From the IMG/VR virus record IMGVR_UViG_3300031994_000066: 64,000 nucleotides of DNA, one strand, 5' to 3'. Positions within the stretch are counted from its first letter, which is position 1, and the number at the start of each line of letters is the position of its first letter. Below are positions 15,209 through 62,868 of the stretch, in pieces. The notes under the pieces are model-generated. The model saw only the letters and a list, made by a program, of their open reading frames with translations, had not been told where the DNA came from and did not search any database. Origin of the DNA: an uncultured virus (IMG/VR IMGVR_UViG_3300031994_000066). Lineage: Duplodnaviria; Heunggongvirae; Uroviricota; Caudoviricetes. The position numbers were made by a program, and so were the translations under genes.

Positions 15209-15219
15209 ATCTTTGCGTA

Positions 15220-37189: not shown

Positions 37190-38368
37190 ATGGCAACACC
37201 ACAAATTTTTGCAAAGACCATTGAGGCGAGCGCACAGACGCAAATTCACGACCTCGCTCACAGTGAGGCATACTCTCATTGTGATATGGCTATTATGCCG
37301 GACGTTCACGCTGGCTCTGGATGCACCATCGGAACGGTAATCAAGATGCAGCATCCGTACAGAATAGTTCCCAATACTGTGGGTGTAGACATCAGCTGTG
37401 GTATGCTCGTCATCCCTCTCGGAAAGACGAAAATCGACCTACCGAAACTGGATGATGTCATCCACAAGTACGTTCCGTGTGGCTTCAACATCCACGAGAA
37501 ACCAGTTCTGTATTTCCAACTGTTCGACCAGTTGAGATGTAAGGACATTCTCGATGAGGAGAAAGTGAATTGTGCCATCGGCTCTCTCGGTGGAGGCAAT
37601 CACTTTATCGAGGTCGATGAGGATGCAGACGGCAACCACTACCTTGTCGTTCACTCCGGCTCTCGCAACCTCGGTAAGAAAGTGTGCGACCACTACCAGC
37701 AGATTGCTCTCAAGCGTTGCTCTGGTGGCGACCAGAAGAAAGCCCTCGTCGAAAGACTGAAGTCGGAGTGTCGCGAGAAAGAGATACAGACGGAACTCAA
37801 GAAATTGACTCCAGCAATCACCAACAAAGACCTTGCGTATCTCGACGAGGAACGGGACAAGGAGGCATACGAGAACTACATCAACGATATGTGCATCTGT
37901 CAGGACTACGCCAACCTCAATAGACGCACGATAGTAAACCTAATCTGTCAGAATATGGGGTGGGTGTATACAGATTGGTTTATGACACCTCACAACTATA
38001 TCGACCTTATGACGATGACCATCCGCAAGGGTGCTGTCGAGGCTCGTGACGGTCAACGCATCATCATCCCTATGAATATGCGTGACGGCTCGCTCATCTG
38101 CATCGGTAAGGGCAACAGCGAGTGGCTTTCGTCTGCACCTCACGGAGCAGGCCGTCTTATGTCTCGCGGTGAGGCTCGCAAGACCCTCTCTGTCGAGGAT
38201 TTCCAGAACACAATGTCTGGCATCTACTCATCAACTGTGTGTGCCGAAACCATAGACGAAGCACCGATGGCATACAAGCCAGCGTCGGAGATTATTGAGT
38301 GCATCAAGGACACAGTTGAGATAGTCAACGTCATCAAGCCTATCTACAATTTCAAAGCAAAGCAGTAG
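37190..38368 (+). CDS. rtcB: RNA 2',3'-cyclic-phosphate ligase RtcB
   Basis: MPDVHAG, VGVDISCG, GSLGGGNHFIE, VHSGSR, HNY, RKGA, SAPHGAGR and DEAPMAYK motifs. Confidence 0.95.
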   Translation: MATPQIFAKTIEASAQTQIHDLAHSEAYSHCDMAIMPDVHAGSGCTIGTVIKMQHPYRIVPNTVGVDISCGMLVIPLGKTKIDLPKLDDVIHKYVPCGFNIHEKPVLYFQLFDQLRCKDILDEEKVNCAIGSLGGGNHFIEVDEDADGNHYLVVHSGSRNLGKKVCDHYQQIALKRCSGGDQKKALVERLKSECREKEIQTELKKLTPAITNKDLAYLDEERDKEAYENYINDMCICQDYANLNRRTIVNLICQNMGWVYTDWFMTPHNYIDLMTMTIRKGAVEARDGQRIIIPMNMRDGSLICIGKGNSEWLSSAPHGAGRLMSRGEARKTLSVEDFQNTMSGIYSSTVCAETIDEAPMAYKPASEIIECIKDTVEIVNVIKPIYNFKAKQ

Positions 38369-48567: not shown

Positions 48568-49248
48568 ATGAGCAATACATACAACAACATCGCAATTACA
48601 GAAGCTGGTAAAGAGAACGCTTTTACCTATGCCACCTACACCATCATCTACATCAACGACTGTGCCGCCAATGCAGCACTCGATGTGTGCCGTGCGCTTG
48701 ACAAGGCAAACTACAAAGGCAACGGAGCAAAGAAGATATGCCGTGGTCTCAAGAACAGAGCGACGGAATACTTCGACCTCTTCAACAAAATCTTTGAGCC
48801 TACACTCGACACCATAGCAGAGTTCTCTTGCGTGTACGATGACTTCTGCGACCAGCCTATCAACCGTTTCCGTCGCCTCATCAAAGAGAGCCTTGACGAG
48901 CAGAACGTCAACAATGCAGAGTTTATTTCCTACGTCGAAACGTGCCGTGCCGTCTGCGAGATGGCCTGTGCGATGAACGACAATATGGTCAAGAAGATGC
49001 TCCCTATCGACAAGGCAGCACTCTCCCTCAAGAACTGGAGGCTTACAAAGTTGAGTGCCGTTGCAAACGACCTCGCGGAGTTCGCCTATGAGACCTCCAA
49101 TGCACAAGGCATAGACCTTAACAAGAACAAGCCCCTCCTCGCGGAGTTCGATAAGTGGATTGAGAACATCTTTCTATACGACAATTTCAAGGCAGCGTAC
49201 AAGGCTGCGTCAGAGAATATCAACAGTAAAATCAATAACAACAATTAA
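48568..49248 (+). CDS. Hypothetical helical protein
   Basis: 226-aa ORF. Confidence 0.75.
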   Translation: MSNTYNNIAITEAGKENAFTYATYTIIYINDCAANAALDVCRALDKANYKGNGAKKICRGLKNRATEYFDLFNKIFEPTLDTIAEFSCVYDDFCDQPINRFRRLIKESLDEQNVNNAEFISYVETCRAVCEMACAMNDNMVKKMLPIDKAALSLKNWRLTKLSAVANDLAEFAYETSNAQGIDLNKNKPLLAEFDKWIENIFLYDNFKAAYKAASENINSKINNNN

Positions 49249-49259
49249 ATTTTATCAGT

Positions 49260-49796
49260 ATGATTACGGAAAAAAATTTCAACGTCAAATTGAGCCTCGG
49301 TGCTTTTATCGGTGCTGGCATTGCCACACTCAATGACGAACAAGGACATCCCGTTGAGGGCGTGTTCATCCCCATTCAAGCCAACAACCTCATCAAGGGC
49401 AACAAGGGCGTTTACTGCGAGCTCCGTGCGTTCCAAATGCGCGAGCCTCGTGTCAGCGAGAACGGAAAGTTCACCGACACCCACATCCTCAAGGTCGCTG
49501 TTCCCAAGGAAATCTACGACAAGATGTCGGACGAGGAGCGTCAGTCAGGCCCCATCGTCGGCTCTGTCAACTCCTACAACTCGGATAACGCACAGTCGAT
49601 GGTTCAGTACGGTTCTGCACCCACGGCAGCACAGCCTATCGCCCAGCAGCCGGTTCAGCATCCCGCACAGCAACCCTATCAGCCTCAAGGTGGCTACCCG
49701 CAGCAGCCTTACGGCGGTTATCCCCAGACTCCTCCAGTCGCACAGCCTCCAGTGGCACAGATGCCGTCTGTTGATGACCCCGATTTGCCTTTCTGA
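49260..49796 (+). CDS. Putative single-stranded DNA-binding protein
   Basis: Beta-rich N-terminal domain, P/Q-rich linker and SSB-type acidic tip DDPDLPF. Confidence 0.65.
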   Translation: MITEKNFNVKLSLGAFIGAGIATLNDEQGHPVEGVFIPIQANNLIKGNKGVYCELRAFQMREPRVSENGKFTDTHILKVAVPKEIYDKMSDEERQSGPIVGSVNSYNSDNAQSMVQYGSAPTAAQPIAQQPVQHPAQQPYQPQGGYPQQPYGGYPQTPPVAQPPVAQMPSVDDPDLPF

Positions 49797-49820
49797 TAAC
49801 TAACACAATTACAGATAGTT

Positions 49821-50297
49821 ATGGAAGTAAAATTCAAAAAACTCACACCGCAGACGTTCATTCCGCAAGCGTCTACAGAGGAAGCAGCAGGCTATGACCT
49901 CCGCATCCCAGAGACAGTAACCATCCGTCTTGGTCGCCAAGTCATCCCTCTCGGTTTCGCCATCCAGCTACCGCGAGGCTACAAAGCCGACATCGACCCT
50001 CGGAGCGGTTTCTCGTCGAAAGGTATGGAGGGTTTTTGTAGCGTCATTGATATGACAGAAAACCGCCCGTCTCGCTTCGATGCAGACGTTGTTCACGGTA
50101 TGGTTGACAGCGACTATACTGGCGGTGTCGGTGTCATCATCAACAACCGCTCTGGTTATGAGTTCATCCTCAAACGCGGTTCTCGCATCGCCCAGATGGT
50201 GATAGTCAAGCACGAGACTGTCACCTTTACAGAGGTTAAGGAACTGAATCAGACGGAACGCGGAACTGGAGGTTTTGGTCACACTGGAACAATGTAA
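49821..50297 (+). CDS. dut: Trimeric dUTPase
   Basis: AAGYDL, PRSG, GMVDSDYTG, RIAQ and RGTGGFGHTG motifs. Confidence 0.95.
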   Translation: MEVKFKKLTPQTFIPQASTEEAAGYDLRIPETVTIRLGRQVIPLGFAIQLPRGYKADIDPRSGFSSKGMEGFCSVIDMTENRPSRFDADVVHGMVDSDYTGGVGVIINNRSGYEFILKRGSRIAQMVIVKHETVTFTEVKELNQTERGTGGFGHTGTM

Positions 50298-50378
50298 ATA
50301 ACACTCATAGGAGAGAGCCGGAGAGGAGATACTAATCACATCAAAACCGTCCGGCTCGTTTTTCAAAAATACAATATT

Positions 50379-50702
50379 ATGGCAACTAAAGCATTGAAAG
50401 ATAAAATCAGAAAGCATATTGAAGACCACCTCTGCATCACAGACGAATACGCAAAGGTGGCGTATAATGTGGACGATTTGCGTCCTATCATCAACGACCT
50501 CATCCAGCTTGACGGTATGAACATCACCTCAAAGCCGTATGAGGAGAATGGAAAGCAGTATATTCTCTGGAGTTACGACCCTTGCAAGCACGTTCCCACT
50601 TGTAAGGACTGTGCCAACCGCGACGCTTGCGTTGACTTCGAGAGAGGCGACTCCAGACCGTGCATCTTTATGGTCACAGAAGACACAGGGGAGGCAAAGT
50701 GA
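50379..50702 (+). CDS. Hypothetical protein with Cys-rich C-terminus
   Basis: CKDC..C..C motif. Confidence 0.65.
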   Translation: MATKALKDKIRKHIEDHLCITDEYAKVAYNVDDLRPIINDLIQLDGMNITSKPYEENGKQYILWSYDPCKHVPTCKDCANRDACVDFERGDSRPCIFMVTEDTGEAK

Positions 50703-51121
50703 TGACAAAGGATGCGAAGAAACTCAAGAACGATTTTGAGTGTGCCGTCCACGCTTATATGATGGCGTTCTGCACCAAGCACGATTACCATTACGACCCG
50801 TCCGACTGGGTTGGTGGGGAGAAAGGTATCGGTACTATCGTGCTTGTTGGCGATATGTACTTCAACTTCGACGATATTCGGTACGACATCGACACAGACC
50901 AGCCGAAAGACCAAATCGTCAAGTGGTACGACTACTCCTATGAGTTATCGTTGCTTGGTGAGAACACCCATAACGTAAACTACGAGCACTGGTGTATGGG
51001 CTTCCGTCCATATTCTCCAGAACAGATAGAGAAGATGAAGCACCAGAAAGCCAAAATCCAGAGAATGAAAGATGACTTGGAGAAGCTGGCAAAGGAAACA
51101 CAGAACGCTGGCTCATTCTAA
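50702..51121 (+). CDS. Hypothetical phage protein
   Basis: TGATG overlap; start MTKDAK. Confidence 0.7.
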   Translation: MTKDAKKLKNDFECAVHAYMMAFCTKHDYHYDPSDWVGGEKGIGTIVLVGDMYFNFDDIRYDIDTDQPKDQIVKWYDYSYELSLLGENTHNVNYEHWCMGFRPYSPEQIEKMKHQKAKIQRMKDDLEKLAKETQNAGSF

Positions 51122-51139
51122 CAAAAAAAACTTAACAAT

Positions 51140-51439
51140 ATGGCAAATAAACGCAACGAAAGATGGTCTCTCACAGAGTACCAGTTCATCATCAAGACAA
51201 AAGGCGCTCGTACATCCCTCCACTTCCGTAACGCCGGCAGAGTCGTCGACCCGTTCCACATGTCTTTCGAGGAGGTGGAACTGGCTTATCAAGAACTCAC
51301 TCGCTGGCAAAACGAGATGGAGCGTTTCTACAAACGACAGAGAACGAAACTCAAGGTCGCAGCAGCAAAGACGAAGTTCCGTCTCTTCTGGATAATGTTG
51401 TTCAACGGCAAATATATGCCAAAGAAAAAGAAGAAATAA
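51140..51439 (+). CDS. Hypothetical protein
   Basis: ORF with A-rich leader. Confidence 0.65.
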   Translation: MANKRNERWSLTEYQFIIKTKGARTSLHFRNAGRVVDPFHMSFEEVELAYQELTRWQNEMERFYKRQRTKLKVAAAKTKFRLFWIMLFNGKYMPKKKKK

Positions 51440-51440
51440 T

Positions 51441-51671
51441 ATGGCAGAAATCAAAGAATCAGCAGACCGCGAATATTATCGTTACAAATGCAAGCATTAT
51501 TGTGACGGTAGTGGAATCTGTGGTTATTTCAGTGGATGGTCGCCCAACAGAAGAATGCACATCACTATCGGATGCACGGCAACTGCCAACTGTCCTCGAA
51601 TGAAACGATACGACAAGTTACACCCTCAAACACAACAACAAAATGGGAATGATGAAGAAAATAAGAGTTGA
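51441..51671 (+). CDS. Small Cys-rich hypothetical protein
   Basis: Operon spacing. Confidence 0.6.
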   Translation: MAEIKESADREYYRYKCKHYCDGSGICGYFSGWSPNRRMHITIGCTATANCPRMKRYDKLHPQTQQQNGNDEENKS

Positions 51672-51933
51672 TTTTATCGCATACCGCTCGGTTGTGGTAG
51701 CAGTCAACGATGAAGAAAGTGCTGTCGAGGAGGCAGAAGCCATCCTCCAGCGTAAAGAGCCAAATGTCGGCTGGGAGTACGACCAGAATTGCGACCTTAA
51801 AGAGGTCGACGATGAGCCGGAGAACCAGATTGATATTGTCCGCTGTACCTCTTGCGGAGAAGAGTATGTAGACCACTTTAACGACGGCTTGTGTCCGTTC
51901 TGCGGTCACGACGCATACGAAAATGAAGTTTAA
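51643..51933 (+). CDS. Hypothetical protein with C-terminal zinc ribbon
   Basis: CTSC..CPFC motif. Confidence 0.65.
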   Translation: MGMMKKIRVDFIAYRSVVVAVNDEESAVEEAEAILQRKEPNVGWEYDQNCDLKEVDDEPENQIDIVRCTSCGEEYVDHFNDGLCPFCGHDAYENEV

Positions 51934-51953
51934 CCCTTAACAACAATAATAAA

Positions 51954-52484
51954 ATGGATTTGAAAGTTACAGTAAACCCCGAAATGGTCGTTGTCACGAC
52001 CAGCAACAATGACCGTGTGGAAATCCACACCAACGCCCCTATGAGCCAGCCTCTCGTTGTCGAGAAGCCAGAGCCAACGTGCCAGTGCCACCAGTGCAAC
52101 GACAAGCCGGTGTCGGTTGTGTACGATGAGGACAAAAATCCCATCGGCATCCGCATCAAGACCCTCGACGAAGACTTCAGTCTTTCGCTCAAGAACCTCG
52201 GCGGTCACGACAAACAGTATGAGTGGAAAGAGATGATGGAACTCCTCAAGGAGAAAGGTCTCACCACGTTCAACTACAAGCAGGCCCACATAATCGCCGC
52301 CTATAAGGATGATGTTGACAAACTCCTCGAAGAGGTGGACGGAGAGCCTATGAACGACCACTGTTTTTGGTCTGTGTCAGAGTATTACAGCACCTATGCG
52401 TGGTTTTACAGTGGCCGCACTGGCGTTGTCGACTACGGCATTAAGAACAATTCGTATTCTGTTCGCCCGCTCCTCGCCCATTAG
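51954..52484 (+). CDS. Remote DGR target protein (176 aa) with C-terminal CLec-type variable region
   Basis: C-terminus FWSVSEYYSTYAWFYSGRTGVVDYGIKNNSYSVRPLLAH matches the TR at the nucleotide level. Confidence 0.9.
   Translation: MDLKVTVNPEMVVVTTSNNDRVEIHTNAPMSQPLVVEKPEPTCQCHQCNDKPVSVVYDEDKNPIGIRIKTLDEDFSLSLKNLGGHDKQYEWKEMMELLKEKGLTTFNYKQAHIIAAYKDDVDKLLEEVDGEPMNDHCFWSVSEYYSTYAWFYSGRTGVVDYGIKNNSYSVRPLLAH
52367..52476 (+). repeat. DGR variable region VR2
   Basis: 110 bp colinear with the TR; 15 mismatches, all at TR adenines. Confidence 0.95.
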
Positions 52485-52508
52485 TCGGTCTTAAATCTTC
52501 TAAACTTC

Positions 52509-52535
52509 GGGGAGCGACCTTGGAAGTCGCTCCCC
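52509..52535 (+). promoter_or_regulatory. DGR target-recognition hairpin downstream of VR2
   Basis: GGGGAGCGAC-CTTGGAA-GTCGCTCCCC. Confidence 0.8.
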
Positions 52536-52556
52536 ATAACAAATGAGAATACAAAA

Positions 52557-52928
52557 ATGAATAACTCACTTCAAAAACAGGTCGGCGGTCGCCACTACAA
52601 GGATTTCACTATTCAGCCAGTGGAACTATTCGCCGCTACTCGTTGGGATTACTTCCAGTCCTCAATAGCACGTTACATTCTCCGATACAAGAATAAGAAT
52701 GGCATTGAAGACCTTGAGAAAGCCATCCATATCGCACACCTCGCATCAGACCTATCCGTCGAAGAAAAAAGGTCGATTGAGAATATTCGCTATATTGAGA
52801 TGTTCTCGAAAGCGAACAACATCTCTGGAAGACAGCAAATCATTCTCGAAGACATTGAAAGCGGAAAGTGGAGTAATGTGTGCTATAGCATAACGGAACT
52901 CAAAACAGAAATGGAGGAAAAGGAATGA
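52557..52928 (+). CDS. DUF3310-family protein
   Basis: QVGGRHYK..IQPVE..RYKNKNGIEDLEKA. Confidence 0.8.
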   Translation: MNNSLQKQVGGRHYKDFTIQPVELFAATRWDYFQSSIARYILRYKNKNGIEDLEKAIHIAHLASDLSVEEKRSIENIRYIEMFSKANNISGRQQIILEDIESGKWSNVCYSITELKTEMEEKE

Positions 52929-53602
52929 ATGGTATTATGTTCAGCAAACCTCTTGGTCTGCACAACGCCGTCGAGATAGGCACGAAAAACATCACAAGGC
53001 GTATTATCAAGATTCCGAACACAAGCGAGCCTCTTGTCCTCAAGGTGGAACAGCCGGTTGGCAACCAGCCTATCTGTGCCGTTCTGTCAACGATGGACGG
53101 AATGGAGAAATTCCGTCTTTATCCAGCCTATTCCATAGGCGAGGAAATAGCCGTGTCAGAGTGTTACCGCGATGTCGTGTTCAAGCATCCAGAGCTCGAA
53201 CAACGCATCCAAAACTACACACTCTACCACAAGTATCACCAGTGCGATTACCGCGATGTCGCCGGCTACAGCAACAAGATGTTCGTCTCATCTCACCTTA
53301 TGCCTACCCGCATCAAAATAACCAACATCCGTATCGAGAAGATGCAAGACATCTCGGACGATGATTGCTACCGCGAGGGTACTCTTGACTTCCTTGAGAC
53401 ACAGAGCGTCGGCTATCCACACGGCTGTGGCTTTGTACCGACATTCGAGTACGCCACCATCAGAGACGCTTTCGCAGACCTCATCGACAGAGTGTCCGGC
53501 AAAGGCACTTGGATGTGCAATCCTTGGGTTTGGGTGTACGAGTTCAAATTGTCAATGGTCAACGGAAATCCAGTATTTTACAATCAACAAACAATAGGAT
53601 AA
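52925..53602 (+). CDS. ASCH/PUA-like phage protein
   Basis: GTKNITRR, IKITNIRIEKMQDISDDD..EG and NPWVWVYEF motifs. Confidence 0.7.
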   Translation: MNGIMFSKPLGLHNAVEIGTKNITRRIIKIPNTSEPLVLKVEQPVGNQPICAVLSTMDGMEKFRLYPAYSIGEEIAVSECYRDVVFKHPELEQRIQNYTLYHKYHQCDYRDVAGYSNKMFVSSHLMPTRIKITNIRIEKMQDISDDDCYREGTLDFLETQSVGYPHGCGFVPTFEYATIRDAFADLIDRVSGKGTWMCNPWVWVYEFKLSMVNGNPVFYNQQTIG

Positions 53603-53603
53603 A

Positions 53604-54191
53604 ATGGAAAAATTCAAAGGAAACAGAATTGAAATCGAGACATTGGAAGTCGCTGGCTTCCGCTCGGCTTTCGAGGCTCTGCGCCTCCCCAAAGGTCGTG
53701 AATGTCGCACAGAAAGCAATTTCCAGATGTCGGTCAACGGAAACTGCCTCGGAACTATCACCGACGTAACGCTCAACGAGAAAGACCTGCATCTCGCATC
53801 GTGCCTCCAGAAGAACAGCGACTGCGAGGCAAAGGTTCTCCGTGGCATCATCGCCTATGCGAAAATCACCGCACCGATGTACTTCTTCGGCGAGCTTGAG
53901 ACATACCGTCACGGTCACGAGCGTCTTTGCTCATCGTCACAGCAGCACATCGACTTTGCCCGTCTCTCCGGCGAGGAACTTGAGGCTACACGAGACCAAG
54001 TGCCGGCTGGCTACAAGTACACGAAGATTGACTTCTTCTCCTACCAGTGCCTCCGTCACATCTTCCAGTGGCGACGCAACCACCGCCTACCTATGTGGCA
54101 TACGTTCTGCGACTGGATATGCCATCTGCCTTATGCAAATGAGTTAATCCTCGTTGGTCTCGACACTGACGGCTATCCTCTCGAAAAATGA
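53604..54191 (+). CDS. Hypothetical phage protein (possibly ThyX-like fold)
   Basis: ITAPMYFFGELETY and SYQCLRHIFQWRRNHRLPMWHTFCDWI segments. Confidence 0.6.
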   Translation: MEKFKGNRIEIETLEVAGFRSAFEALRLPKGRECRTESNFQMSVNGNCLGTITDVTLNEKDLHLASCLQKNSDCEAKVLRGIIAYAKITAPMYFFGELETYRHGHERLCSSSQQHIDFARLSGEELEATRDQVPAGYKYTKIDFFSYQCLRHIFQWRRNHRLPMWHTFCDWICHLPYANELILVGLDTDGYPLEK

Positions 54192-54703
54192 AACGGAAAA
54201 TGAAAACAATACTTGTCATCATTTTAATCGGAATTACGGTGTTCTTTCTACTGCCTCACATACTATTACCGCTCATCCCAGAGATTAAAACCCAACCAGA
54301 GACCATTTCCGCACCCTCTGGAGCGTCTTTCGATGAGGTTGAGGTTATTCTTACCCAAGGCATAAAAGATAGCGTAGAATGGCAAATTTTTACCCTCGCT
54401 GTGGCAATGCAGGAGTCAAGGTGGTCGGCAACGGCTCGCAACGGTGACGCGATAGGCTTCCTACAGATACGTCCTATATGCGTCAATGAGGCAAACCGCA
54501 TCCTCGGCAGAGAGAAATACCACCACGAAGACTGTTGGTCAAAGGAGGTGTCGGTCGAGATATGGAACGTCATACAGAACCACCACAACCCAGACCACGA
54601 CCACGACAAAGCCCTTGACATCTGGAATCCCAACCATTCAGACTCGTACAAGTATGGAGTACAGTTGTACTACAACCAACTGACATCACAGAAAGAATCG
54701 TAA
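54188..54703 (+). CDS. Membrane-anchored lysozyme-like/SLT transglycosylase domain protein
   Basis: N-terminal TM helix; AVAMQES and AIGFLQI motifs. Confidence 0.7.
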   Translation: MKRKMKTILVIILIGITVFFLLPHILLPLIPEIKTQPETISAPSGASFDEVEVILTQGIKDSVEWQIFTLAVAMQESRWSATARNGDAIGFLQIRPICVNEANRILGREKYHHEDCWSKEVSVEIWNVIQNHHNPDHDHDKALDIWNPNHSDSYKYGVQLYYNQLTSQKES

Positions 54704-54714
54704 ACCACAATATT

Positions 54715-54999
54715 ATGACCAAGGAAGAGCAAATCGAAAAAGTCAAACGCCAAGTCTGCACCTACTACAAGGTGACATTCGAGCAAGTGCTTGACAAGAA
54801 CAATTCAAAGCAAGTGTCTGGAGCAAGAAATATGATGATGTATATGCTCCATTGCGACCTTGAGGTGTCTTTCGGTATCCTCGCAAAGATGTTCAACCGC
54901 ACGTCACGCAACGTCCAGATGCGTGTCGCCGATACCAAGTACATCGTAGAGAACCAGAAAAAGTATAAGCGTATCTACACAGAAATCAAAGCCATATAA
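54715..54999 (+). CDS. DnaA C-terminal-like HTH protein
   Basis: VCTYYKV..VSGARNMMMYML..ILAKMFNRTSRNV. Confidence 0.7.
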   Translation: MTKEEQIEKVKRQVCTYYKVTFEQVLDKNNSKQVSGARNMMMYMLHCDLEVSFGILAKMFNRTSRNVQMRVADTKYIVENQKKYKRIYTEIKAI

Positions 55000-55002
55000 A
55001 AA

Positions 55003-55036
55003 CCGAAAGGGGCTACTTTACGTAACCCCTCCTCGG
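55003..55036. terminator. Probable terminator between convergent operons
   Basis: Imperfect CCGA..AGGGG/CCCCT..TCGG hairpin. Confidence 0.5.
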
Positions 55037-55062
55037 CGAAATATATAGGCAAGTAAACGCTC

Positions 55063-55482
55063 TTACAAACCCACCTCTCTCCTCCAAGCCTGCACGTCAA
55101 ACGACGGACAGGCTTTTGCCGCATACTCGCGGTGTCCGCTCACTTTGTTGATACCGAAAACGGTCTTCAACGAGCGAACCAGCTCCGCGAGAGCGGCTTT
55201 CTGTTGGGGAGTTCTGGTGTCTTTCGGAGTTTTGCCATCGGCAGCACAGCCTCCAACGTAGCAGACTCCTATCGTGCCAGTGTTGTGGTTTGTCGTATGC
55301 GCACCAATCTGGTCGATAGGTCTTCCTGCGTGGATGCTACCGTCACGGTAGATGACATAGTGATACCCTATGTCTTTCCAACCATTCCCTTGTACGTGCC
55401 ACTTGCGGATTTGGTCTACTGTGTAGTCCTTACCCTCGGCAGTAGCAGTACAATGGATGATGATTTCATTTATTGGTCTCAT
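55063..55482 (-). CDS. Endolysin, N-acetylmuramoyl-L-alanine amidase (Amidase_2, T7 lysozyme-like)
   Basis: IIIHCTAT, WKDIGYHYVI, GAH, IGVCYVGG and GHRE..KACPSF motifs. Confidence 0.93.
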   Translation of the reverse strand: MRPINEIIIHCTATAEGKDYTVDQIRKWHVQGNGWKDIGYHYVIYRDGSIHAGRPIDQIGAHTTNHNTGTIGVCYVGGCAADGKTPKDTRTPQQKAALAELVRSLKTVFGINKVSGHREYAAKACPSFDVQAWRREVGL

Positions 55483-55864
55483 TTTGCTGGGCCTCCTTTG
55501 CTTTTCTGGTTTCCTCCGCAAGGAATTGCTGGAAATTGCCGTTGAGGTACTTGACAACGGCAGAGAGAAGAACCTCCATATTGTCAACCCGTTTGTCGAT
55601 GAGGGTAAGCATTTTCTTCATCTCCTCTTGGTTTCCAGAGTTCTCTGTTTGCGATTTCTTTAACAAGTCAATGACTTTCAGCATTTCTTCCTTGTAGAGA
55701 TTACCAAGTTCTATCTCGGCTTTTTGAGCTTCGACATTCGATTGAGTTGCTTGACTACTCTTGATGGTGGTGTTCTGCTTGCGGAACTTAATGGTCTCGT
55801 ATAGCGTGAACAAGAAACCACCAGAGATGAGTGTCGTGATGATTGTGTTCCAGTCAAGTTGCAT
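55466..55864 (-). CDS. Putative holin / membrane coiled-coil protein
   Basis: One N-terminal TM helix followed by a coiled coil; overlaps the amidase start. Confidence 0.6.
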   Translation of the reverse strand: MQLDWNTIITTLISGGFLFTLYETIKFRKQNTTIKSSQATQSNVEAQKAEIELGNLYKEEMLKVIDLLKKSQTENSGNQEEMKKMLTLIDKRVDNMEVLLSAVVKYLNGNFQQFLAEETRKAKEAQQNETNK

Positions 55865-55890
55865 AACACCTACCTCCTTTCCATTGACAG

Positions 55891-56247
55891 TTACGCCACG
55901 GAAGCGTAGAAGTTGACAGAACCGCGCTTGACTATCCAAGCATCACGGATTTCGCCGGTCTCAAGGTTCTTGACCATTCCGACGTTGGAGCGGATGACAA
56001 CCATACCATCCTCAACGGCAGCAACGACCAGTTCGCCTTGCTCGGTGTATTCGTGTTCCTCTTCCTTGGTCTCTTCCTCGGCGGCAGGGGGCTCGGCGAC
56101 CTCTGGAGAAGCAACATCGACTGGAGTCTCTTCCTCTACTTTGGGAGCGGTCTCGGTCTCTGTTTCCACAACCGGCTTCTCGTCAACAATAGGGGTCTTA
56201 ACCTCGGTAGTCTCGGTCTTCTTATCGGTGTTTTTCTTTCGTGCCAT
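55891..56247 (-). CDS. Hypothetical acidic low-complexity protein
   Basis: Start MARKKN; E/T/P-rich. Confidence 0.65.
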   Translation of the reverse strand: MARKKNTDKKTETTEVKTPIVDEKPVVETETETAPKVEEETPVDVASPEVAEPPAAEEETKEEEHEYTEQGELVVAAVEDGMVVIRSNVGMVKNLETGEIRDAWIVKRGSVNFYASVA

Positions 56248-56277
56248 TTTGATACGTTTTAGTTGGTTAAACATTGT

Positions 56278-56550
56278 TTATTCCTCCTCGTGCATCGGCT
56301 CGTGGTCGTCGCCTTTCTCGGCTTCCTCCTCCTCAATCTCCCGACGAAGTTCCTCAATGGCTACCTCGTTGGTGTTGTAGGTCTCGCGAGCAGCGATGTA
56401 CTCGGCTTCATCGTCGGGATAGGTTTCAGCGAAATTCAATCCCAACTTGGTGCATTTCAATGCGTGAGCATCGCTCTTCTGCATTGTGGCCAGGAGAGCC
56501 ACTTGTTCGCTCTCCAACTGACGTAATTGCTCGATTTTACTCATATTCAT
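56278..56550 (-). CDS. Hypothetical coiled-coil protein (possible tail-fibre chaperone)
   Basis: LLATMQKSDAHALKC..YIAARETYN; start uncertain. Confidence 0.6.
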   Translation of the reverse strand: MNMSKIEQLRQLESEQVALLATMQKSDAHALKCTKLGLNFAETYPDDEAEYIAARETYNTNEVAIEELRREIEEEEAEKGDDHEPMHEEE

Positions 56551-56578
56551 ATATTTTTTTGGTTTGACAATCATTTAT

Positions 56579-57826
56579 TTATGCAGCCATTGCCATTTGT
56601 AGTTCAAATTCACGCTTCCTCTCCCGTGTCTGTCTCATCACCACAGCATTTTCAGTGTATTTATTGGAAATGTGTGCCACGAGATTGTCTTTGTCGAACT
56701 CTATATACTTCGACCACTCGCTGTTCTTGAGCATATCCACACCTTGTGTCCGAAGACGGTAGGAATTGCACCACTTGAGTAATCCAAGATATGAGTTGCA
56801 TACACTGACAACCTTGTCTTTGAACTGCCACACCATCTCCGGCGACCTCGACACAAGGTCGGCGAAACGGCGCATCTTGTACAGCCAGTTGTGAGCGATA
56901 CGGTCATTAGGCAGAATACGGTCGAAGCGTACCTTGAACGCACCGACACGGATTCCTTTCGAGTAGTGTTGAATGTCGAACTTCTTTGGATGAAGACGAA
57001 GACGCATCCGCTGCCAGCAGAACTCGCGGAAGAAAGGCATCAAACTCAAGAACTCTCGCTTGTGTATAATCACACCTTTGATGTCATCGGTGTAACATAC
57101 AAAGCGAATACCAAGCTCTTCCAACAACTTGAGGAACTCGGTCGTTATGAAATTTGCAAGCGTCTGCGACGTGACGTTGCCTATCGCCAGACCTATAGGA
57201 GAGGTGCTACCGACGAGCGATTTGCTCTTCTCGATATGTTTCCACATCCACTCTGGTGATTTCTTCACGCAGTCGGACTGCGGGCGATGGCGGTAGATTA
57301 TCTCTGCAAGATACTCCACGACCTCCCAATCAGCCTCCTCATAGTGCTTGTCGATGAAATCCACAACACGAGGAGTCCAAAAGGCTGTGTCGATGCTTGG
57401 GAAGAACCCTTGAAAGTCAAACGAGAAAACATAACAGTCTTTCGTATAGTTCTCGCTGACTTGTCGCAGATACTCTCTGAACCGATACGCGGCACGAAGA
57501 CCACCTTTCCCTACACGACACGAGTAGGAATCTTTGCTCTCGTATGCCTCAAATATCGGTAGTATCTTCTGCACGAGAATTGTCTGTGCCACACGGTCGC
57601 GGAAATCGGCTGCAAGAACCTCTCTCCATTTCGGCTGTGAGATGATAAAGGCAATGCTTCTTTTCATCTTCAAACACATCAGATTTATTTGATGGCACAG
57701 TTCAATCAAACCCTCACAGCGATACATCTCAAATATCAACTGTGATGGTTTGCGTCTTTTCTTACGTCTACAAAGATAGTAGCAATAGAGTACATAATCA
57801 TAGGGAATAGGATAATCCATCAGCAT
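56579..57826 (-). CDS. DGR reverse transcriptase
   Basis: REVLAADFRDRVAQ, SYSCRVGKG, FDFQGFFPSID, GLAIGNVTSQ (DGR-type SQ motif), catalytic YTDD, NSYLG. Start placed at the first ATG after the TR; the frame is open up to 58018. Confidence 0.95.
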   Translation of the reverse strand: MLMDYPIPYDYVLYCYYLCRRKKRRKPSQLIFEMYRCEGLIELCHQINLMCLKMKRSIAFIISQPKWREVLAADFRDRVAQTILVQKILPIFEAYESKDSYSCRVGKGGLRAAYRFREYLRQVSENYTKDCYVFSFDFQGFFPSIDTAFWTPRVVDFIDKHYEEADWEVVEYLAEIIYRHRPQSDCVKKSPEWMWKHIEKSKSLVGSTSPIGLAIGNVTSQTLANFITTEFLKLLEELGIRFVCYTDDIKGVIIHKREFLSLMPFFREFCWQRMRLRLHPKKFDIQHYSKGIRVGAFKVRFDRILPNDRIAHNWLYKMRRFADLVSRSPEMVWQFKDKVVSVCNSYLGLLKWCNSYRLRTQGVDMLKNSEWSKYIEFDKDNLVAHISNKYTENAVVMRQTRERKREFELQMAMAA

Positions 57827-57849
57827 GTGGTCGTTTTCTCGGTAAAGTT

Positions 57850-57959
57850 CGAGGAGCGGGCGAACAGAATACGAATTGTTCTTATTGTTGTTGTTGACAT
57901 TGCCATTGTTGCCATTGTAATACCACGCATTGTTGCTGTTATACTCTGACACAGACCAA
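57850..57959 (-). ncRNA. DGR template repeat (TR)
   Basis: AAC/AAT-rich 110-bp sequence between avd and RT; translates as WSVSEYNSNNAWYYNGNNGNVNNNNKNNSYSVRPLL. Confidence 0.95.
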
Positions 57960-58054
57960 TGTATGTTGCACATATTGTTCTGACAAGTTCTACTCGTATG
58001 TCGCATAAATGTTTGCATTGCAACGAATAAGTTTTTGCTTGTTGTGCATCCCCA

Positions 58055-58486
58055 TTAACGAGAGGTCTCTTCCACGGGCGTTACCGCAGAAATCTGCCTC
58101 ACTGATTCCGATAATTTTTTGCGGAGTGAGTTTGACCACCCCTCCAGATTTATCCTAATTTTGTGCATCTGAATGTCGTATTTCGCACGAACCTCATTGC
58201 TAATCGTCTGAACGTCGGGAGAATTGGCAATATCCAACTTCCGCTCAAGGCGTACCAGATGGCTCATAGCAAAGCAGGCTGCGTCGTACTTACCCTCAAA
58301 GTTATCCTTTGGCATATAGTAAGCGTCACTTATACCATCACAGATTGCCGAAGCCTCGTCGATAATGTCTTTCCAAAGTTTCTTGTACTTGTTCATTATC
58401 TTGTGTTCTGTGCGGTATGTCATACGCTCAAGTACCATAGCGTCTTGATAAACTTCAAGGTTTTTTATGTCAGCACCTTTAGCCAT
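58055..58486 (-). CDS. avd: DGR accessory variability determinant (Avd-like four-helix bundle)
   Basis: 143-aa helical protein with LEVYQDA near the N-terminus and LEGW near the C-terminus; canonical position between target gene and TR. Confidence 0.8.
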   Translation of the reverse strand: MAKGADIKNLEVYQDAMVLERMTYRTEHKIMNKYKKLWKDIIDEASAICDGISDAYYMPKDNFEGKYDAACFAMSHLVRLERKLDIANSPDVQTISNEVRAKYDIQMHKIRINLEGWSNSLRKKLSESVRQISAVTPVEETSR

Positions 58487-58545
58487 ATTCGTTTGATTTA
58501 CTTGTTCAGATTTATTTCTTTACTCGTTCTCAACCCTCCGAGTAT

Positions 58546-58572
58546 GGGGTCTGTCTTTCAAGGACAGACCCC
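58546..58572 (-). promoter_or_regulatory. DGR target-recognition hairpin downstream of VR1
   Basis: Minus strand GGGGTCTGTC-CTTGAAA-GACAGACCCC. Confidence 0.8.
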
Positions 58573-58591
58573 AAGAGGGAAAGGTTTAAGG

Positions 58592-59932
58592 TTAGACTTC
58601 GAGGGCGAGGAGCGGGCGAACAGAACACGAAATGCGCTTATAGTAGTAGCCGACATAGCCAAAGGTGCCATTGTAACACCACGCAACGTTGCCGTTAGAC
58701 TCTGACACAGACCAAATGTAATCGCTATTCGCCAGAGCCGTACCACCTATCTTACTCAAGGCAGAACGCACGAGAGCATAGGTTGTGTCCTCCATAAACA
58801 TACCGAGGTCGGTATTGTTCGGCATCTGCCACTTACCAGCAGCCATAGCGTCATCACCGCTAACATAGGCGGTATTGGCATAGTATGCTGCGGGGAAAGC
58901 GGGTACTCTGTTTCCGTCGAGGTCGAGAGTCATCACAGAGGCGAGGAGTTTGGTCTGTTCGAGACCGCGACCATAGCCAATGTACTCGACACCACCGGCG
59001 TGTACGTCTTCAACCTTAATCATGTGCGCACGGAGATAGGCATCATAATCGCCATTATATTTAGCGTATACAGCCTGTGCATCAGCAGTGCCAGTAGCAC
59101 AAGCCTCGAAAGCCGTCTGTTTCATAATGTCAACGGCACTCTCCGCTACATAACTGGCATTACCATTCGCAGAAGCCCACGATTTCCATTTGGAAAAGTT
59201 AGCACCGCAACGGTAGGAGTTGTTGTACCCAGCCTTGCTGTACTGAACGGTGTTCGCGGCGATGAAACTCGTGAGACCGAGAGAGAGGCTTCCGACGGCA
59301 GTATTCTGCCATCCGCGATGGACTTCAGTCTGTTTGACACCATCGACCCAGCACTGTTTCGAGAGGTCTTCATACTCGACACCGCTGTCACTGGAGATTG
59401 TGAATGTACTTGCGGAATAGGTGTTGACGGCGATACCGACATAAGTACCTTTGTTCACAGCGAGACCGCTCTGTACGGCGTTAATCTGGCTGACGATTGT
59501 AGCAACAGCATCGCTCGCCCAAGTGACATCGCCACTCTTTGCAGTACCGTTGATGGTCACAGCCCAATGGAACGAGCCGGAGGCCGACGGAGTGAGTTTG
59601 TAAAAACCACTCTGACCCCACATTCTGCTTGCAGCGTTCTTGTGCATAATGATGCACTTACCGAGGATTTTTCCGAACATCACGCCAACGATAGTGAATC
59701 GAGGGTCGAGACTTGCGGCATTGTACTCGGCTACGGGAACGCCATACTTCTGCTTGGTTGTCGGGTCAAGCAGGACGATGTTCACGCCGTCGCACTGCTT
59801 TATTGGGGTGATTGGATTTTTGCCGTCATAGTGCATCTCACCGCCGTCGAAAGAGACAGACGATTCGTTGACTGGACGGTCTGTAGCAGCACTGTAGGCT
59901 GCCTTACTTGCATACTTGAAAATGTTTGCCAT
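58592..59932 (-). CDS. DGR target protein 1, probable tail fibre/receptor-binding protein with C-terminal CLec-type variable region
   Basis: 446 aa; FPAAYYA..GKWQMPN..YIWSVSE...VRPLLAL; lies among tail genes. Confidence 0.88.
   Translation of the reverse strand: MANIFKYASKAAYSAATDRPVNESSVSFDGGEMHYDGKNPITPIKQCDGVNIVLLDPTTKQKYGVPVAEYNAASLDPRFTIVGVMFGKILGKCIIMHKNAASRMWGQSGFYKLTPSASGSFHWAVTINGTAKSGDVTWASDAVATIVSQINAVQSGLAVNKGTYVGIAVNTYSASTFTISSDSGVEYEDLSKQCWVDGVKQTEVHRGWQNTAVGSLSLGLTSFIAANTVQYSKAGYNNSYRCGANFSKWKSWASANGNASYVAESAVDIMKQTAFEACATGTADAQAVYAKYNGDYDAYLRAHMIKVEDVHAGGVEYIGYGRGLEQTKLLASVMTLDLDGNRVPAFPAAYYANTAYVSGDDAMAAGKWQMPNNTDLGMFMEDTTYALVRSALSKIGGTALANSDYIWSVSESNGNVAWCYNGTFGYVGYYYKRISCSVRPLLALEV
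58606..58715 (-). repeat. DGR variable region VR1
   Basis: 110 bp colinear with the TR; 18 mismatches, all at TR adenines. Confidence 0.95.
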
Positions 59933-59955
59933 TGTTTATTTCTCCTTTCTTTTCG

Positions 59956-61491
59956 TTAGGCGTTGGTTCTGGCTTTCCAGTCAGTCACGGCAGAAACACC
60001 AGTGGCATCGTAGAAGACCTTATTGGTCGTGTCGAAATAGGTTTGACCGATGAACAGAGGTACACCAGTCCAGGCACCATAGCGTTCAGCATCCCATTCT
60101 GCCGGAACAACAGAGGAAGAGGGAGCGCCAGCAGCCTTGAGGATAGCATCTCCACCACGGAGGCGCAGATTCATCTCGCCATTGACACGGAGGCTCTGGA
60201 CGGAGAGAGATGCAAAGCCGTTCTCAATGCTCTTCTCGATACCAGAGACGCGGGCATCCAGATTGGCAAAGGCTTCTGCAATGGTTCTCTGGGCGAGAGC
60301 TCCAATGAAGTTACTGGCGATGTTCCTGAAGATACCCCAACCCACTTTCTTGCACACACCACCGTTGACGGTAGCGGTGAAGCCGGAGATGACCACAGTG
60401 AGGGCCTGCGGAGCGAGGTACACATAGTAACCAGCACTCGGCATAGCAGCGACACTCTGGCGCACCAGAGGCACATAGAAATTCTCGGTGACGGTGTGGG
60501 TGGTAGGCAGAGAAGCAACGGTCGTACCGCCGATGGTGATTGTGGCGTGACCCTCCTCGTCATAGGTGTAGGTGTACACCAGAGTCTGGTCATAGTCGGC
60601 AGTGGCCGTTGCGACGCGGCCCTGCTCGTCGTAAGTGAGTGTATAGACGATAGGCTTCTCATAGGTACGAGTCTCTTTCTGGCTCACCACCGAACACTCG
60701 GCAGCAACAGCAGAAGCACTCGGCACGAGAAGAATATCACCCATATTGAGGTTGATAGCGTCCGAAATGCCGTAGTTGGCATTGGAGGTTTCAGTACCGC
60801 TGGTATTGACGTATTTGCCGCTCGTACCCTGCGTGAGGGTGACAGACGAAACAGCATCGTACTTACCGAAAGATTCGTGGATGAACTGTGCATCCGAAGC
60901 GCTAAACGCGACCAGTTTGCTGGTAGCAGTGCCAAGGAAGCGAGCGTACAGAGCATCCTTGTACACCCAAAGCAGAGCGTCGAGGCTACTGTCATAGGTG
61001 ACAAGCGCCATGTGGATTTTGTTGTCGGCAGAGCCATCAGCCACCTGACAAGGGGCATAGTTGGCATAGTTGCCGGCGGTCTGTCTGGTCGAGAGATAGG
61101 ACTTGAAAGCAGCCCAACTCGAAGACGTGGCTGTTGTCATCAGATTGAGAGCGCCGTAGGTAGAAACGAACTCCTTGTACTTGAGTTGTTCGCTCTTCTC
61201 ATACAGCATTGCCATTGTAACCTCCTCGACATCCTCGCTATCCCAGACACCAGTATGACTGGCAATGAAGCGATAAGCCTTGTTCTCGTAACGCACAATA
61301 TCATTGGCATAATACTGTGTCTGCGAGTTAAAGGCGGCAATGTCAAGGATGTTGCGGAACTCTGCGTTGAGATAAGTGTCGAGCTGTTCGACACTCGCTT
61401 TCTTCGGAGTGTTACTTCCGTCAGACAACGGAAACACGACGGTCGGAGAAAGGGCATCAATCAACGAAGCGTCTTTGATTTTTACATCCAT
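59956..61491 (-). CDS. Putative tail fibre/virion protein
   Basis: 511 aa, S/T/A/V-rich; one aromatic module (FNSQTQYYANDIVRYENKAYRFIASHTGVWD) like those in the 1872-aa protein. Confidence 0.7.
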   Translation of the reverse strand: MDVKIKDASLIDALSPTVVFPLSDGSNTPKKASVEQLDTYLNAEFRNILDIAAFNSQTQYYANDIVRYENKAYRFIASHTGVWDSEDVEEVTMAMLYEKSEQLKYKEFVSTYGALNLMTTATSSSWAAFKSYLSTRQTAGNYANYAPCQVADGSADNKIHMALVTYDSSLDALLWVYKDALYARFLGTATSKLVAFSASDAQFIHESFGKYDAVSSVTLTQGTSGKYVNTSGTETSNANYGISDAINLNMGDILLVPSASAVAAECSVVSQKETRTYEKPIVYTLTYDEQGRVATATADYDQTLVYTYTYDEEGHATITIGGTTVASLPTTHTVTENFYVPLVRQSVAAMPSAGYYVYLAPQALTVVISGFTATVNGGVCKKVGWGIFRNIASNFIGALAQRTIAEAFANLDARVSGIEKSIENGFASLSVQSLRVNGEMNLRLRGGDAILKAAGAPSSSVVPAEWDAERYGAWTGVPLFIGQTYFDTTNKVFYDATGVSAVTDWKARTNA

Positions 61492-61566
61492 AATTACTTA
61501 ATTTAATGTTGGTTAAACTTACTTTTGTTACTTTTCTTGTTGTTGAGACACAGCCTCCCAGCGTGG

Positions 61567-61842
61567 TTATCGGACTTTTCTGTACCCTCCAATGACGCGA
61601 CTGCCATCGTCGAAGCACACAGTATCGCCGTTGTCGAACAGAAGCACTGTCGGCTCGGTCGGTACGACACGTTTCTGACCAGCCACGACGTTGCTACCGT
61701 CATCCCACAGCATAGGCGAACCGTCATCCCACAGGAGCATGATTTGCTCCACAACGGTCTTGACATCTTCGCCGAATCCGACACCGATACGGCGGGTCTT
61801 GACCGCTGCCAACGACACTTTTCGCAAACCTACTTTTCTCAT
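61567..61842 (-). CDS. Small virion-associated hypothetical protein with (W/F)DDG repeats
   Basis: LLWDDGSPMLWDDGSNV..LLFDNGDTVCFDDGS. Confidence 0.65.
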   Translation of the reverse strand: MRKVGLRKVSLAAVKTRRIGVGFGEDVKTVVEQIMLLWDDGSPMLWDDGSNVVAGQKRVVPTEPTVLLFDNGDTVCFDDGSRVIGGYRKVR

Positions 61843-61888
61843 TTTGTGATTTCTCCTGCTTTACGTTGGTTAGACTAAATGGTTTTCT

Positions 61889-62191
61889 CTACTCGACTGT
61901 GATGTACTCCGCATCCTCGATTGGCAAAAAAGCCTGCAACAGAACCGAAAGACCAGCGGGAATGTCGAGACGGAACATCTTGCTGTTTCCACCCCACATA
62001 TCCACGTTTTCTACGCGGACATAAGGCATAACGCTGGACGTGCGAGCAAGCACATCAACGTAGCACTCCGACGGATTTTTTGCACCATCGCCGAAGTCTA
62101 CTTGCATAACAATCTCGTCGCCGTTACTCGTGTACGAGTATTCATAGCGACCGTTTGTTGGGTTTTTGGTGAATGTTACTTTTGTAGCCAT
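61889..62191 (-). CDS. Hypothetical beta-rich protein
   Basis: 100-aa ORF in the structural operon. Confidence 0.7.
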   Translation of the reverse strand: MATKVTFTKNPTNGRYEYSYTSNGDEIVMQVDFGDGAKNPSECYVDVLARTSSVMPYVRVENVDMWGGNSKMFRLDIPAGLSVLLQAFLPIEDAEYITVE

Positions 62192-62211
62192 ATTCTTGAA
62201 AATTTATGTTT

Positions 62212-62868
62212 TTAGTTCAACACATTCGAGCCGTCATCCCACAGCATAGCGACGTTGTTATCCCACAGCATATAGCCGTAATTTGAACGCACATCGTAAT
62301 TCTGTGCATTGACCGGCAAGAAGAACACTGTGGACGTTCCAAGCACGGTGTCAGTACCGCCTTGACCATCGTCCACATACACGGTGAATGATTGCTGTTC
62401 TGCTTTTCCTTGGATTGTACCCTCGGCAGAACCAGTCTTCATATTGGCAAATGCAGCCTTGGTGTTCAACTTCAGTTTCGGTATCACAACATTTGGCAGA
62501 TTGCGGTCTTGGAACTCCAGTTCCACAACAGCCCAGCGGTCGTGATGCTCCGACGGAGCGAGAAGAACACCGTCATCCTCCACAAAGCCGAATATTTCCT
62601 TGAGAACGTCGTTCTGAAAGTCAATGCAGACGCTCGTGAAATTCACAGCGCCCAACTGAATATTCTCAAACAGAGGCGAGGAATAAAACTCGGCTTCTTT
62701 GGCATTGATAGTATTGTCATCCGGCTCAAGGACAACACTATCAGCAACGATTGCACGAAAATCGTACTTGGTCAACCCAACCGTGTCCTCGTTGATGTAG
62801 GGCGTAATATACAGATGGGTCAACTTTCTGAATATACGCATATTCGAGCCTAAATCTTTTACACCCAT
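62212..62868 (-). CDS. Putative tail-tube-like structural protein
   Basis: 218 aa, beta-rich, next to the tape measure gene; ends YMLWDNNVAMLWDDGSNVLN. Confidence 0.5.
   Translation of the reverse strand: MGVKDLGSNMRIFRKLTHLYITPYINEDTVGLTKYDFRAIVADSVVLEPDDNTINAKEAEFYSSPLFENIQLGAVNFTSVCIDFQNDVLKEIFGFVEDDGVLLAPSEHHDRWAVVELEFQDRNLPNVVIPKLKLNTKAAFANMKTGSAEGTIQGKAEQQSFTVYVDDGQGGTDTVLGTSTVFFLPVNAQNYDVRSNYGYMLWDNNVAMLWDDGSNVLN

Follow-up and report, generated by a model that had tools for sequence, protein, structure and literature searches.

Outside vertebrate immunity, diversity-generating retroelements (DGRs) are to our knowledge the only natural means by which proteins are hypermutated in a targeted way, and the accepted purpose of those carried by phages is receptor switching. 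Such an element was found within a 64,000-nucleotide stretch of DNA from an uncultured Caudoviricetes virus (IMG/VR record IMGVR_UViG_3300031994_000066), referred to here as the window, which represents 64 kb of a genome of approximately 81 kb. It is a DGR with two targets, one of which lies beside the cassette in the tail module while the other is remote and on the opposite strand.

This two-target layout is already known from other gut phages. A distal, opposite-strand and presumably non-structural second DGR target has been described for the Bacteroides phage Quimbyvirus of the ‘Quimbyviridae’ (Benler et al., 2021; PMC8008677). In Roseburia phage Shimadzu, two variable repeats (VRs), VR1 and VR2 (orf43), were found to diversify in reads from virions and in mouse viromes, and selection on VR2 is reported to be the weaker (Cornuault et al., bioRxiv 10.1101/575076). 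A pair of targets, one large and one small, is also reported for nd4 and nd12, the small one having a lectin fold and that of nd12 (nd12_tgt2) an N-terminal motif resembling DUF3310 (Baykov et al., 2023; PMC10743442), and a large and a small target are likewise described for the Faecalibacterium phages Lelie and CP11 (PMC11792537). An earlier note, made from the letters of the window alone, placed the novelty of the locus in its second target protein, a claim that is overstated given the layouts published for Quimbyvirus, Shimadzu and nd4/nd12. What it said of mechanism and activity holds, and a non-structural role for this second protein of 176 aa is plausible from its gene context.

Repeats and diversification at both sites

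The element is built around one template repeat (TR), which sits immediately upstream of the gene for the reverse transcriptase (RT), and two VRs:

57850..57959, minus strand: TR, 110 bp with 35 adenines, within the 5' extension of the RT open frame
58606..58715, minus strand: VR1, 18 mismatches to TR, all at adenine sites
52367..52476, plus strand: VR2, 15 mismatches to TR, all at adenine sites

The three 110-bp repeats align without gaps, and the positions and the mismatch counts of 18 and 15 given in the earlier note were correct. TR adenines, which make up 35 of the 110 TR positions, are the site of 33/33 mismatches (VR1 18/18, VR2 15/15), for which the hypergeometric chance under random placement is 2e-11 for VR1, 3e-9 for VR2 and approximately 6e-20 jointly. 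The two VRs carry different substitutions, with 25 distinct positions hit and 8 of these common to both, again as had been claimed. Homology is lost sharply beyond either end of the repeat, and its 20-nt 3' end occurs exactly three times in the 64-kb window at up to three mismatches (expected 0). The count of two VRs covers the window part of the genome, and a third VR may exist in the remainder. Thirteen AAY codons are present in the TR when it is read in the frame of both targets, and both VRs terminate their open reading frames (ORFs). VR2 forms the end of the ORF for the 176-aa protein; it is on the strand opposite to that of the TR, and 5,374 bp separate its 3' end from the TR.

Evidence of activity came from a relative in IMG/VR (L001), which is collinear with positions 50758–62478 of the window at 95.9% identity. 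The TR of L001 differs from that of the window by two non-adenine changes, at positions 34 (G>T) and 100 (C>T), and both VRs of L001 bear the same two changes as their own TR (4/4 VR positions agree). VR1 and VR2 have therefore each been re-copied from the TR since the two phages diverged. Within L001, mismatches lie at TR adenines in 19/19 cases for VR1 and 15/16 for VR2, the other being at a C site. Between the window and L001, VR2 differs at 21/110 positions (18 at TR adenines, two tracking the TR and one C>G), which is 19% as against 1.4% (6/421 bp) in the remainder of the gene. VR1 shows 24 differences between the two genomes, 22 of them at TR adenines and two tracking the TR.

The same pattern was seen across the wider population. 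In a collection of 5.8 billion proteins, 39 orthologues of the 176-aa protein were found at 81–92% identity, on contigs of up to approximately 82 kb, and 26 full-length examples were aligned for entropy analysis. Mean column entropy was 0.16 bits for residues 1–143 and 1.59 bits for residues 144–170, each orthologue had a different VR2 allele, and all 16 of the VR positions with at least four residue types corresponded to codons holding a TR adenine. Other VR2 alleles in related genomes, which the earlier note had suggested looking for, are thus plentiful, with their variation confined to TR-adenine codons. The VR1 target showed the same hypervariable pattern in nine orthologues. Both VRs have been recently homed into and are hypervariable across the population. 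In a more distant lineage (54% and 69% identity; proteins P0044 and P0218, both on one contig of 82,487 bp), ‘WSVAE’ replaces the ‘WSVSE’ of the window in both targets; since this scaffold change is common to the two, the two-target design is older than that split.

A search of IMG/VR with the exact 20-nt repeat end gave no match, and missed L001 because that phage has its C>T change inside this stretch. Four sequencing runs, all as assembled contigs, were mapped on the window. The contigs of runs X1 and X9 break at VR2, TR and VR1, as expected of a shared repeat. Run X7 gave extra low-depth VR alleles, including two 115-bp contigs which were placed on VR2 with only 1–3 nt of flank and which may be VR1 alleles. 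Run X15, from an RNA library, gave a contig identical to 51957–52403 and others across the cassette, with 4/30 bins empty and DNA carry-over possible. It should also be noted that one assembled contig of run X9 (depth 77) joins position 57969, just upstream of the TR, to 58659, inside VR1, skipping 689 bp; most probably the assembly ran through the shared repeat here or the contig comes from a different strain, a TR/VR1 recombinant being a further possibility.

Cassette, targeting signal and target proteins

The proteins and signals associated with the repeats are as follows:

56579..57826, minus strand: DGR RT, with an open frame reaching to 58018 through the TR and a likely start Met at 57826
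58055..58486, minus strand: 143-aa candidate accessory (Avd-like) protein, by position and size, between the VR1 target and the TR
58592..59932, minus strand: VR1 target, 446 aa, a beta-rich N-terminal part and a C-terminal C-type-lectin domain, located after the tape-measure gene and three tail-module genes
51954..52484, plus strand: VR2 target, 176 aa, predicted to comprise a three-stranded beta mini-domain (1–28), a proline-rich linker with CxCHxxC (29–52) and a C-type-lectin domain (53–176)
58546..58572, minus strand: hairpin after VR1, 10-bp GC-rich stem and 7-nt loop, starting 33 nt after VR1
52509..52535, plus strand: hairpin after VR2, 10-bp GC-rich stem and 7-nt loop, starting 32 nt after VR2

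The RT matches RVT_1 (E 2e-10) and phrog_1423 (E 2e-50) and contains the motifs IGNVTSQ at ORF residue 279 and YTDD at residue 309, the motif (I/V/L)GxxxSQ being described as a hallmark of DGR RTs (PMC3521204). In tblastn, the RTs of Bacteroides phages align from residue 92 of the open frame onwards, and the likely start lies 24 nt from the end of the upstream TR. The open frame (56579–58018, minus strand) crosses the whole TR in frame, so that the resulting 479-aa ORF opens with a lectin-like peptide encoded by the TR; it is because this peptide is read in frame that a spurious Lcl_C match appears at residues 13–54. Over-extension of the RT start by gene callers is to be expected from such a frame.

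The 143-aa ORF is a candidate for the accessory protein Avd. No match was found to it in Pfam, PHROG or NCBIfam, nor any sequence match in the PDB, while a language-model search (Atlas) provided leads only, at 0.88–0.90, among them a cluster named ‘four helix bundle protein’ (0.89) and one in which 13% of members carry bAvd (0.88).

Folding of 86-nt DNA stretches gave z values of −3.2 after VR1 and −3.35 after VR2, as opposed to +0.45 after the TR, where there is no hairpin. The stems of the two hairpins differ in sequence and both pair perfectly, while their loops are one base apart in the window and identical to each other in L001. The VR1 hairpin is unchanged in L001 and that of VR2 is intact and conserved. 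CCC stands directly 3' of both VRs and AAC at the TR. Neither hairpin is followed by a T-run, and they are thus not terminator-like. In Bordetella phage BPP-1, the stem's structure is reported to be needed and its sequence not, the loop to be sequence-dependent and targeting to be independent of orientation (Guo et al., 2011; PMC3240598). The pattern at both VRs matches this rule, by analogy with which a role in homing is predicted, and since target function is orientation-independent under it, a site on the opposite strand could be served.

The 446-aa VR1 target has a weak match to Lcl_C (21.4 bits; gathering cut-off of PF07603 34.9). Its AlphaFold2 (AF2) model has a mean predicted local distance difference test score (pLDDT) of 91.5, and its lectin part resembles the Bacteroides fimbrial tip 4eps (Z 12.8) and the Legionella protein Lcl (Z 8.9). 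Residues 109–192 appear as an inserted domain resembling the insertion domains or decorations of tail sheath and FliD (Z 6–6.8), and in the fold search the N-terminal half matched no named tail protein. No match to this target was found by tblastn against phage records. It is presumed to be a receptor binder at the end of the tail module.

The earlier note expected the 176-aa protein to hold a compact ligand-binding domain and suggested a structure prediction and fold search, which bear this out. The AF2 model (106 sequences) has a pLDDT of 91.6, with the linker 29–52 less confident, and in it residues 53–176 take up a C-type-lectin fold. The best structural match is the C-terminal domain of Legionella Lcl (PDB 8q4e; Z 11.9 over 115 aligned residues, root-mean-square deviation 4.8, 13% identity), which was also ranked first by Foldseek (E 5e-3). 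Further matches include Bd2740, InvE (Z 10.1) and the fimbrial tip 4eps (Z 9.2), with TvpA (Z 8.5) and Mtd (Z 7.7), both known as targets of DGRs, sharing the fold. No Pfam match was obtained at E ≤ 0.01, and so neither to PF07603 nor to DUF6273, and no PHROG match; by tblastn against 50,697 phage records only two records of ‘Dulem virus 29’ were found, at 38–41% identity over 38% of the query. Neither a signal peptide nor a membrane segment can be made out in the sequence. Similarity to the VR1 target is limited to residues 121–175, the N-terminus being unrelated, and residues 1–52 gave no usable match in the Atlas search. The CxCHxxC motif of the linker (52080–52097; residues 43–48) is nearly invariant in the 26 orthologues, expanded in P0044 and absent from most of the wider family, and may be a metal site.

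Gene context, family and role of the second target

The genes that surround the two targets belong to different parts of the genome:

62992–63963, minus strand: C-terminus of the tape-measure protein
55063–55587, minus strand: amidase endolysin, which together with three small ORFs closes the minus-strand block
49821–50297, plus-strand block: dUTPase
52557..52928, plus strand: DUF3310 protein, 123 aa (PF11753, E 1e-5, above gathering score; also phrog_5839 and ‘nucleotide kinase’ PHROGs), directly downstream of the VR2 target

Along the minus strand, the C-terminus of the tape-measure protein is followed by three tail-module ORFs (one with a match to CBM_5_12), the VR1 target, the 143-aa ORF, the TR and the RT. 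The plus-strand block encodes a helicase, RtcB, a polymerase exonuclease subunit, SbcC-like and RecT-like proteins and the dUTPase, followed near its end by the VR2 target and then by the DUF3310 protein. The earlier note had thus rightly placed VR2 near the dUTPase and DUF3310 genes, at about 5.4 kb from the template. It is possible from this arrangement that the DUF3310 protein is a functional partner of the VR2 target; a complex prediction of the two scored 0.00, which has no bearing on binding either way. A 96-aa ORF just upstream of the VR2 target (51643–51933, plus strand) has weak zinc-ribbon matches, to a YgiT-type finger at E 2e-3 and below cut-off. The largest gene of the window, an ORF of 1872 aa at 51–5669 on the plus strand, gave no PHROG match at E ≤ 1e-5. 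By its primase-helicase, the nearest cultured relative is a 74-kb Bacteroides uniformis phage (38.5% identity), while a megablast of window positions 49000–62000 against phage records gave no match. The nearest genome record (G001), a fragment of 28.9 kb, does not match positions 51000–60000, which carries no weight in either direction. The host of this gut phage is probably a member of the Bacteroidales.

An exhaustive HMMER search with the 176-aa protein returned 198 clusters (50% identity) at E ≤ 1e-3, nearly all of 110–250 aa and matching residues from approximately 50 to 175. The family consists of a conserved core with variable N-termini, many members being the bare domain of 125 aa. Of 106 members scanned, 18 match Lcl_C (PF07603) and none DUF6273 at E ≤ 1e-3, and 26 match phrog_4245, of unknown function. 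Searches of viral contigs with P0044 and with P0045, a further family member, gave two weak partial matches and none, respectively, and a genome scan with a narrower family alignment (A4) gave one locus. Recoding was considered for distant family loci and rejected, the apparent frame breaks being due to antisense frames having been picked.

In a second, metagenomic lineage (L004–L013; for example L008:5172-5552 and L004:3218-3598) the homologue is a bare domain of 126 aa, with its first 93 residues almost invariant and its end hypervariable. In seven copies, the columns with at least three bases fall at codon positions 1 or 2 in 19/19 cases; this corresponds to the AAY-codon signature of a DGR, and it is this pattern that points to diversification there. 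No TR copy was found in these loci with up to 10 kb of flank, and this target would therefore also be remote. In L004 and L008 it heads the genes that diverge from a CI-type repressor, which has an integrase as its neighbour. A third setting is provided by a Bacteroidales metagenome-assembled genome (MAG; G002:C36, with L023/L024/L015), in which the homologue (37273–37683) lies two genes before DnaG primase. The same contig carries a DGR of like design with one VR (RT 8620–9828, 45% identical to that of the window; TR 9859–9978; VR 10536–10655). Family genes are thus located in early, immunity or replication modules in three lineages.

In one family member, P0045, the lectin domain is joined to a complete DUF3310 domain (E 2e-15), and the variable part of this protein agrees with the TR peptide of the MAG-type element. 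DUF3310 is described in SaV, an early protein of lactococcal phages which is toxic and which AbiV senses, as well as in T7 gp1.7 and in early mycobacteriophage genes that are cytotoxic (PMC8306868; PMC10700055). By analogy with these reports, the domain can be regarded as a mark of early, non-virion proteins.

It is likely that TR RNA is copied by the adjacent RT, probably with the 143-aa accessory protein, that adenines are misread during copying, and that the cDNA replaces the 110-bp VR wherever the recognition signal is present, this being the shared 3' repeat end with a hairpin approximately 33 nt downstream, of which there are two sites. VR1 closes a lectin-tipped protein that is encoded where the tail module ends and is presumed to bind the receptor. 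VR2 closes a soluble protein without a signal peptide, which would act as a non-virion binder made early in infection and whose hypervariable face of 13 codons would follow a fast-changing ligand. The reading preferred here, to which a rough probability of 0.6 is assigned, is therefore that of an active two-target DGR whose second target is most likely an early, non-virion binder. Early expression and absence of the 176-aa protein from the virion are what we infer from gene context in three lineages, from the DUF3310 fusion and from an N-terminus unrelated to that of the VR1 target, all of which favour such a role. The earlier suggestion that this protein is non-structural is favoured, as a plausible role, by the gene context and the fusion.

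A number of points weigh against this reading. Gene position is a weak guide, given that phages encode fibre and decoration proteins outside the structural block too, and the tail assignment of the VR1 target is itself drawn mainly from gene order, together with weak fold matches. The fusion to DUF3310 was seen in only 1/194 proteins compared. The MAG homologue, 27 kb from the resident DGR, is not its target, as it has 51% identity to the MAG TR and mismatches that are not confined to adenines, and diversification is therefore not universal in the family. In addition, the accessory protein has no profile match, and the RNA-library contig over the VR2 gene does not prove transcription. Finally, an Mtd-like receptor-binding role has been proposed for comparable small targets (Baykov et al., 2023; PMC10743442), and the presence of one TR-encoded face both on a tail protein and on the small one could mean that the two come into contact with the cell surface.

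These last two points also speak for an unlikely but serious possibility, namely that the 176-aa protein is part of the virion, with a gene that lies outside the structural block, and serves for instance as an accessory adhesin, a decoration protein or an exchangeable fibre tip, which would dock via its N-terminal beta mini-domain and give the phage two independently varying surface binders. Such a role, favoured by Baykov et al. for the small targets of nd4 and nd12, would suit the resemblance of the lectin domain to the adhesin tips of InvE and 4eps and to Mtd, and proteins named tail fiber are among its matches in BFVD. However, outside the lectin domain the protein resembles neither the VR1 target nor any structural PHROG, and the many family members that are bare domains have no docking part. 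The early, immunity or replication context in three lineages argues in the other direction, as does the fusion which ties the lectin domain to an early intracellular domain family. The VR2 alleles of Shimadzu are also reported to be under weaker selection than those of VR1 during infection (bioRxiv 10.1101/575076).

The early, non-virion binder could be given a more specific function. The family might represent an intracellular, antibody-like binder of the earliest infection stage, acting with or fused to an early protein of the DUF3310/SaV type, whose DGR-encoded face tracks diversifying host defence or abortive-infection (Abi) proteins as an adaptive counter-defence arm distinct from receptor switching. 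Taken in full this is rather improbable, and a counter-defence role is speculation here as it is in the papers cited.

There is also a slim chance that the protein is made inside the cell but exerts its action elsewhere, either extracellularly once the cell has lysed or at the envelope of a lysogenic or infected cell, as a soluble lectin for variable surface glycans which might, for example, block superinfection or keep progeny off debris. C-type-lectin folds typically bind surface ligands, and the capsules of Bacteroidales, the predicted hosts given the B. uniformis phage as nearest isolate, are phase-variable; the gene of the second lineage also stands beside a repressor, a frequent place for genes expressed from prophages. 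Against this, no signal peptide or membrane segment is evident and there is no sign of a temperate phage, no integrase having been found among the 35 larger ORFs scanned in the window, with approximately 17 kb of the genome lying outside it. That VR2 is a relic, having arisen from the VR1 end by an old duplication and no longer being rewritten, which the earlier note tied to an invariant VR2 beside a variable VR1, has a probability close to nil, as it would fit only if the adenine-site differences were ancient, no supporting point was found for it, and it is refuted by the TR tracking of VR2 in L001 (a genome 96% identical to the window) and by its hypervariability across the 26 orthologues, with the divergence of 19% within VR2 and 1.4% in the gene outside it, the allele peculiar to each orthologue and the intact, conserved hairpin all pointing the same way.

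Comparison with known systems

With regard to layout, on which the comparison is based, the window agrees with that published for Quimbyvirus (PMC8008677). In both, one DGR serves two lectin-fold targets, the first located beside the cassette after the tail genes (tail fibre genes in Quimbyvirus) and the second distal, on the opposite strand and among non-structural genes. Genome size is also comparable (a median of 75 kb for Quimbyvirus-type phages and approximately 81 kb here), with Bacteroidales as the host group in both. The RT occupies one open frame in the window whereas three overlapping frames are described in Quimbyvirus, and the neighbours of the second target are a dUTPase and a DUF3310 protein in the window as opposed to a nuclease and methyltransferases. 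A 604-aa DNA methyltransferase, a nucleoside 2-deoxyribosyltransferase-like protein and an RtcB tRNA ligase are encoded at 12228–17034 and 37190–38368 of the window. Such counter-defence and repair genes are reported near the second target of Quimbyvirus by Benler et al., among them a tRNA ligase and methyltransferases, while the RtcB and DNA methyltransferase of the window lie 14–35 kb from VR2.

The window also resembles Shimadzu as that phage is described, with VR1 in a tail gene before the RT, VR2 elsewhere in a gene of unknown function and both diversified. It differs in that activity is deduced here from the comparison of natural genomes, and in that the host phylum of Shimadzu is Firmicutes. 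With the small targets of nd4 and nd12 (nd4_tgt2 and nd12_tgt2), Lelie and CP11, the 176-aa protein has in common a single lectin domain with a C-terminal VR forming a beta-hairpin, and the DUF3310-like N-terminus of nd12_tgt2 is paralleled by P0045. The nd4/nd12 proteins are nevertheless described as DUF6273 proteins of 234–294 aa encoded inside the cassette, whereas that of the window has 176 aa and no DUF6273 match, is encoded 5.4 kb away on the other strand and has DUF3310 as a separate neighbouring gene; its closest relation is to Lcl_C/DUF1566.

As in BPP-1, with its Mtd, Avd, TR and Brt (PMC3240598), transfer from TR to VR is adenine-specific, the VR lies at the 3' end of a lectin-fold gene and the hairpin has a variable stem and a kept loop. 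Unlike in BPP-1, there are two targets, the loop has 7 nt, the hairpin starts 32–33 nt after the VR instead of within 24 bp directly downstream, and the accessory protein has no sequence match. Legionella Lcl (Lcl_C, PF07603, formerly DUF1566), with which the fold is shared at 13% identity, is an adhesin that the bacterium secretes, and it is no target of a DGR.

A second, apparently non-virion DGR target thus recurs in gut phages, as seen in Quimbyvirus, Shimadzu and nd4/nd12. While knowledge of the mechanism is unchanged by the present locus, several elements are added to this picture. The point changes of the TR that are followed by both VRs provide proof from natural genomes that the remote site is live. 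The Lcl_C-like family of small proteins (198 clusters) is delineated as distinct from the DUF6273 targets, and its context is consistently early, immunity- or replication-related in three lineages. A second, independent link is also provided between small DGR targets and DUF3310, which occurs in phage proteins that are early, toxic and sensed by Abi systems. Taken as a whole, these additions make a concrete hypothesis testable.

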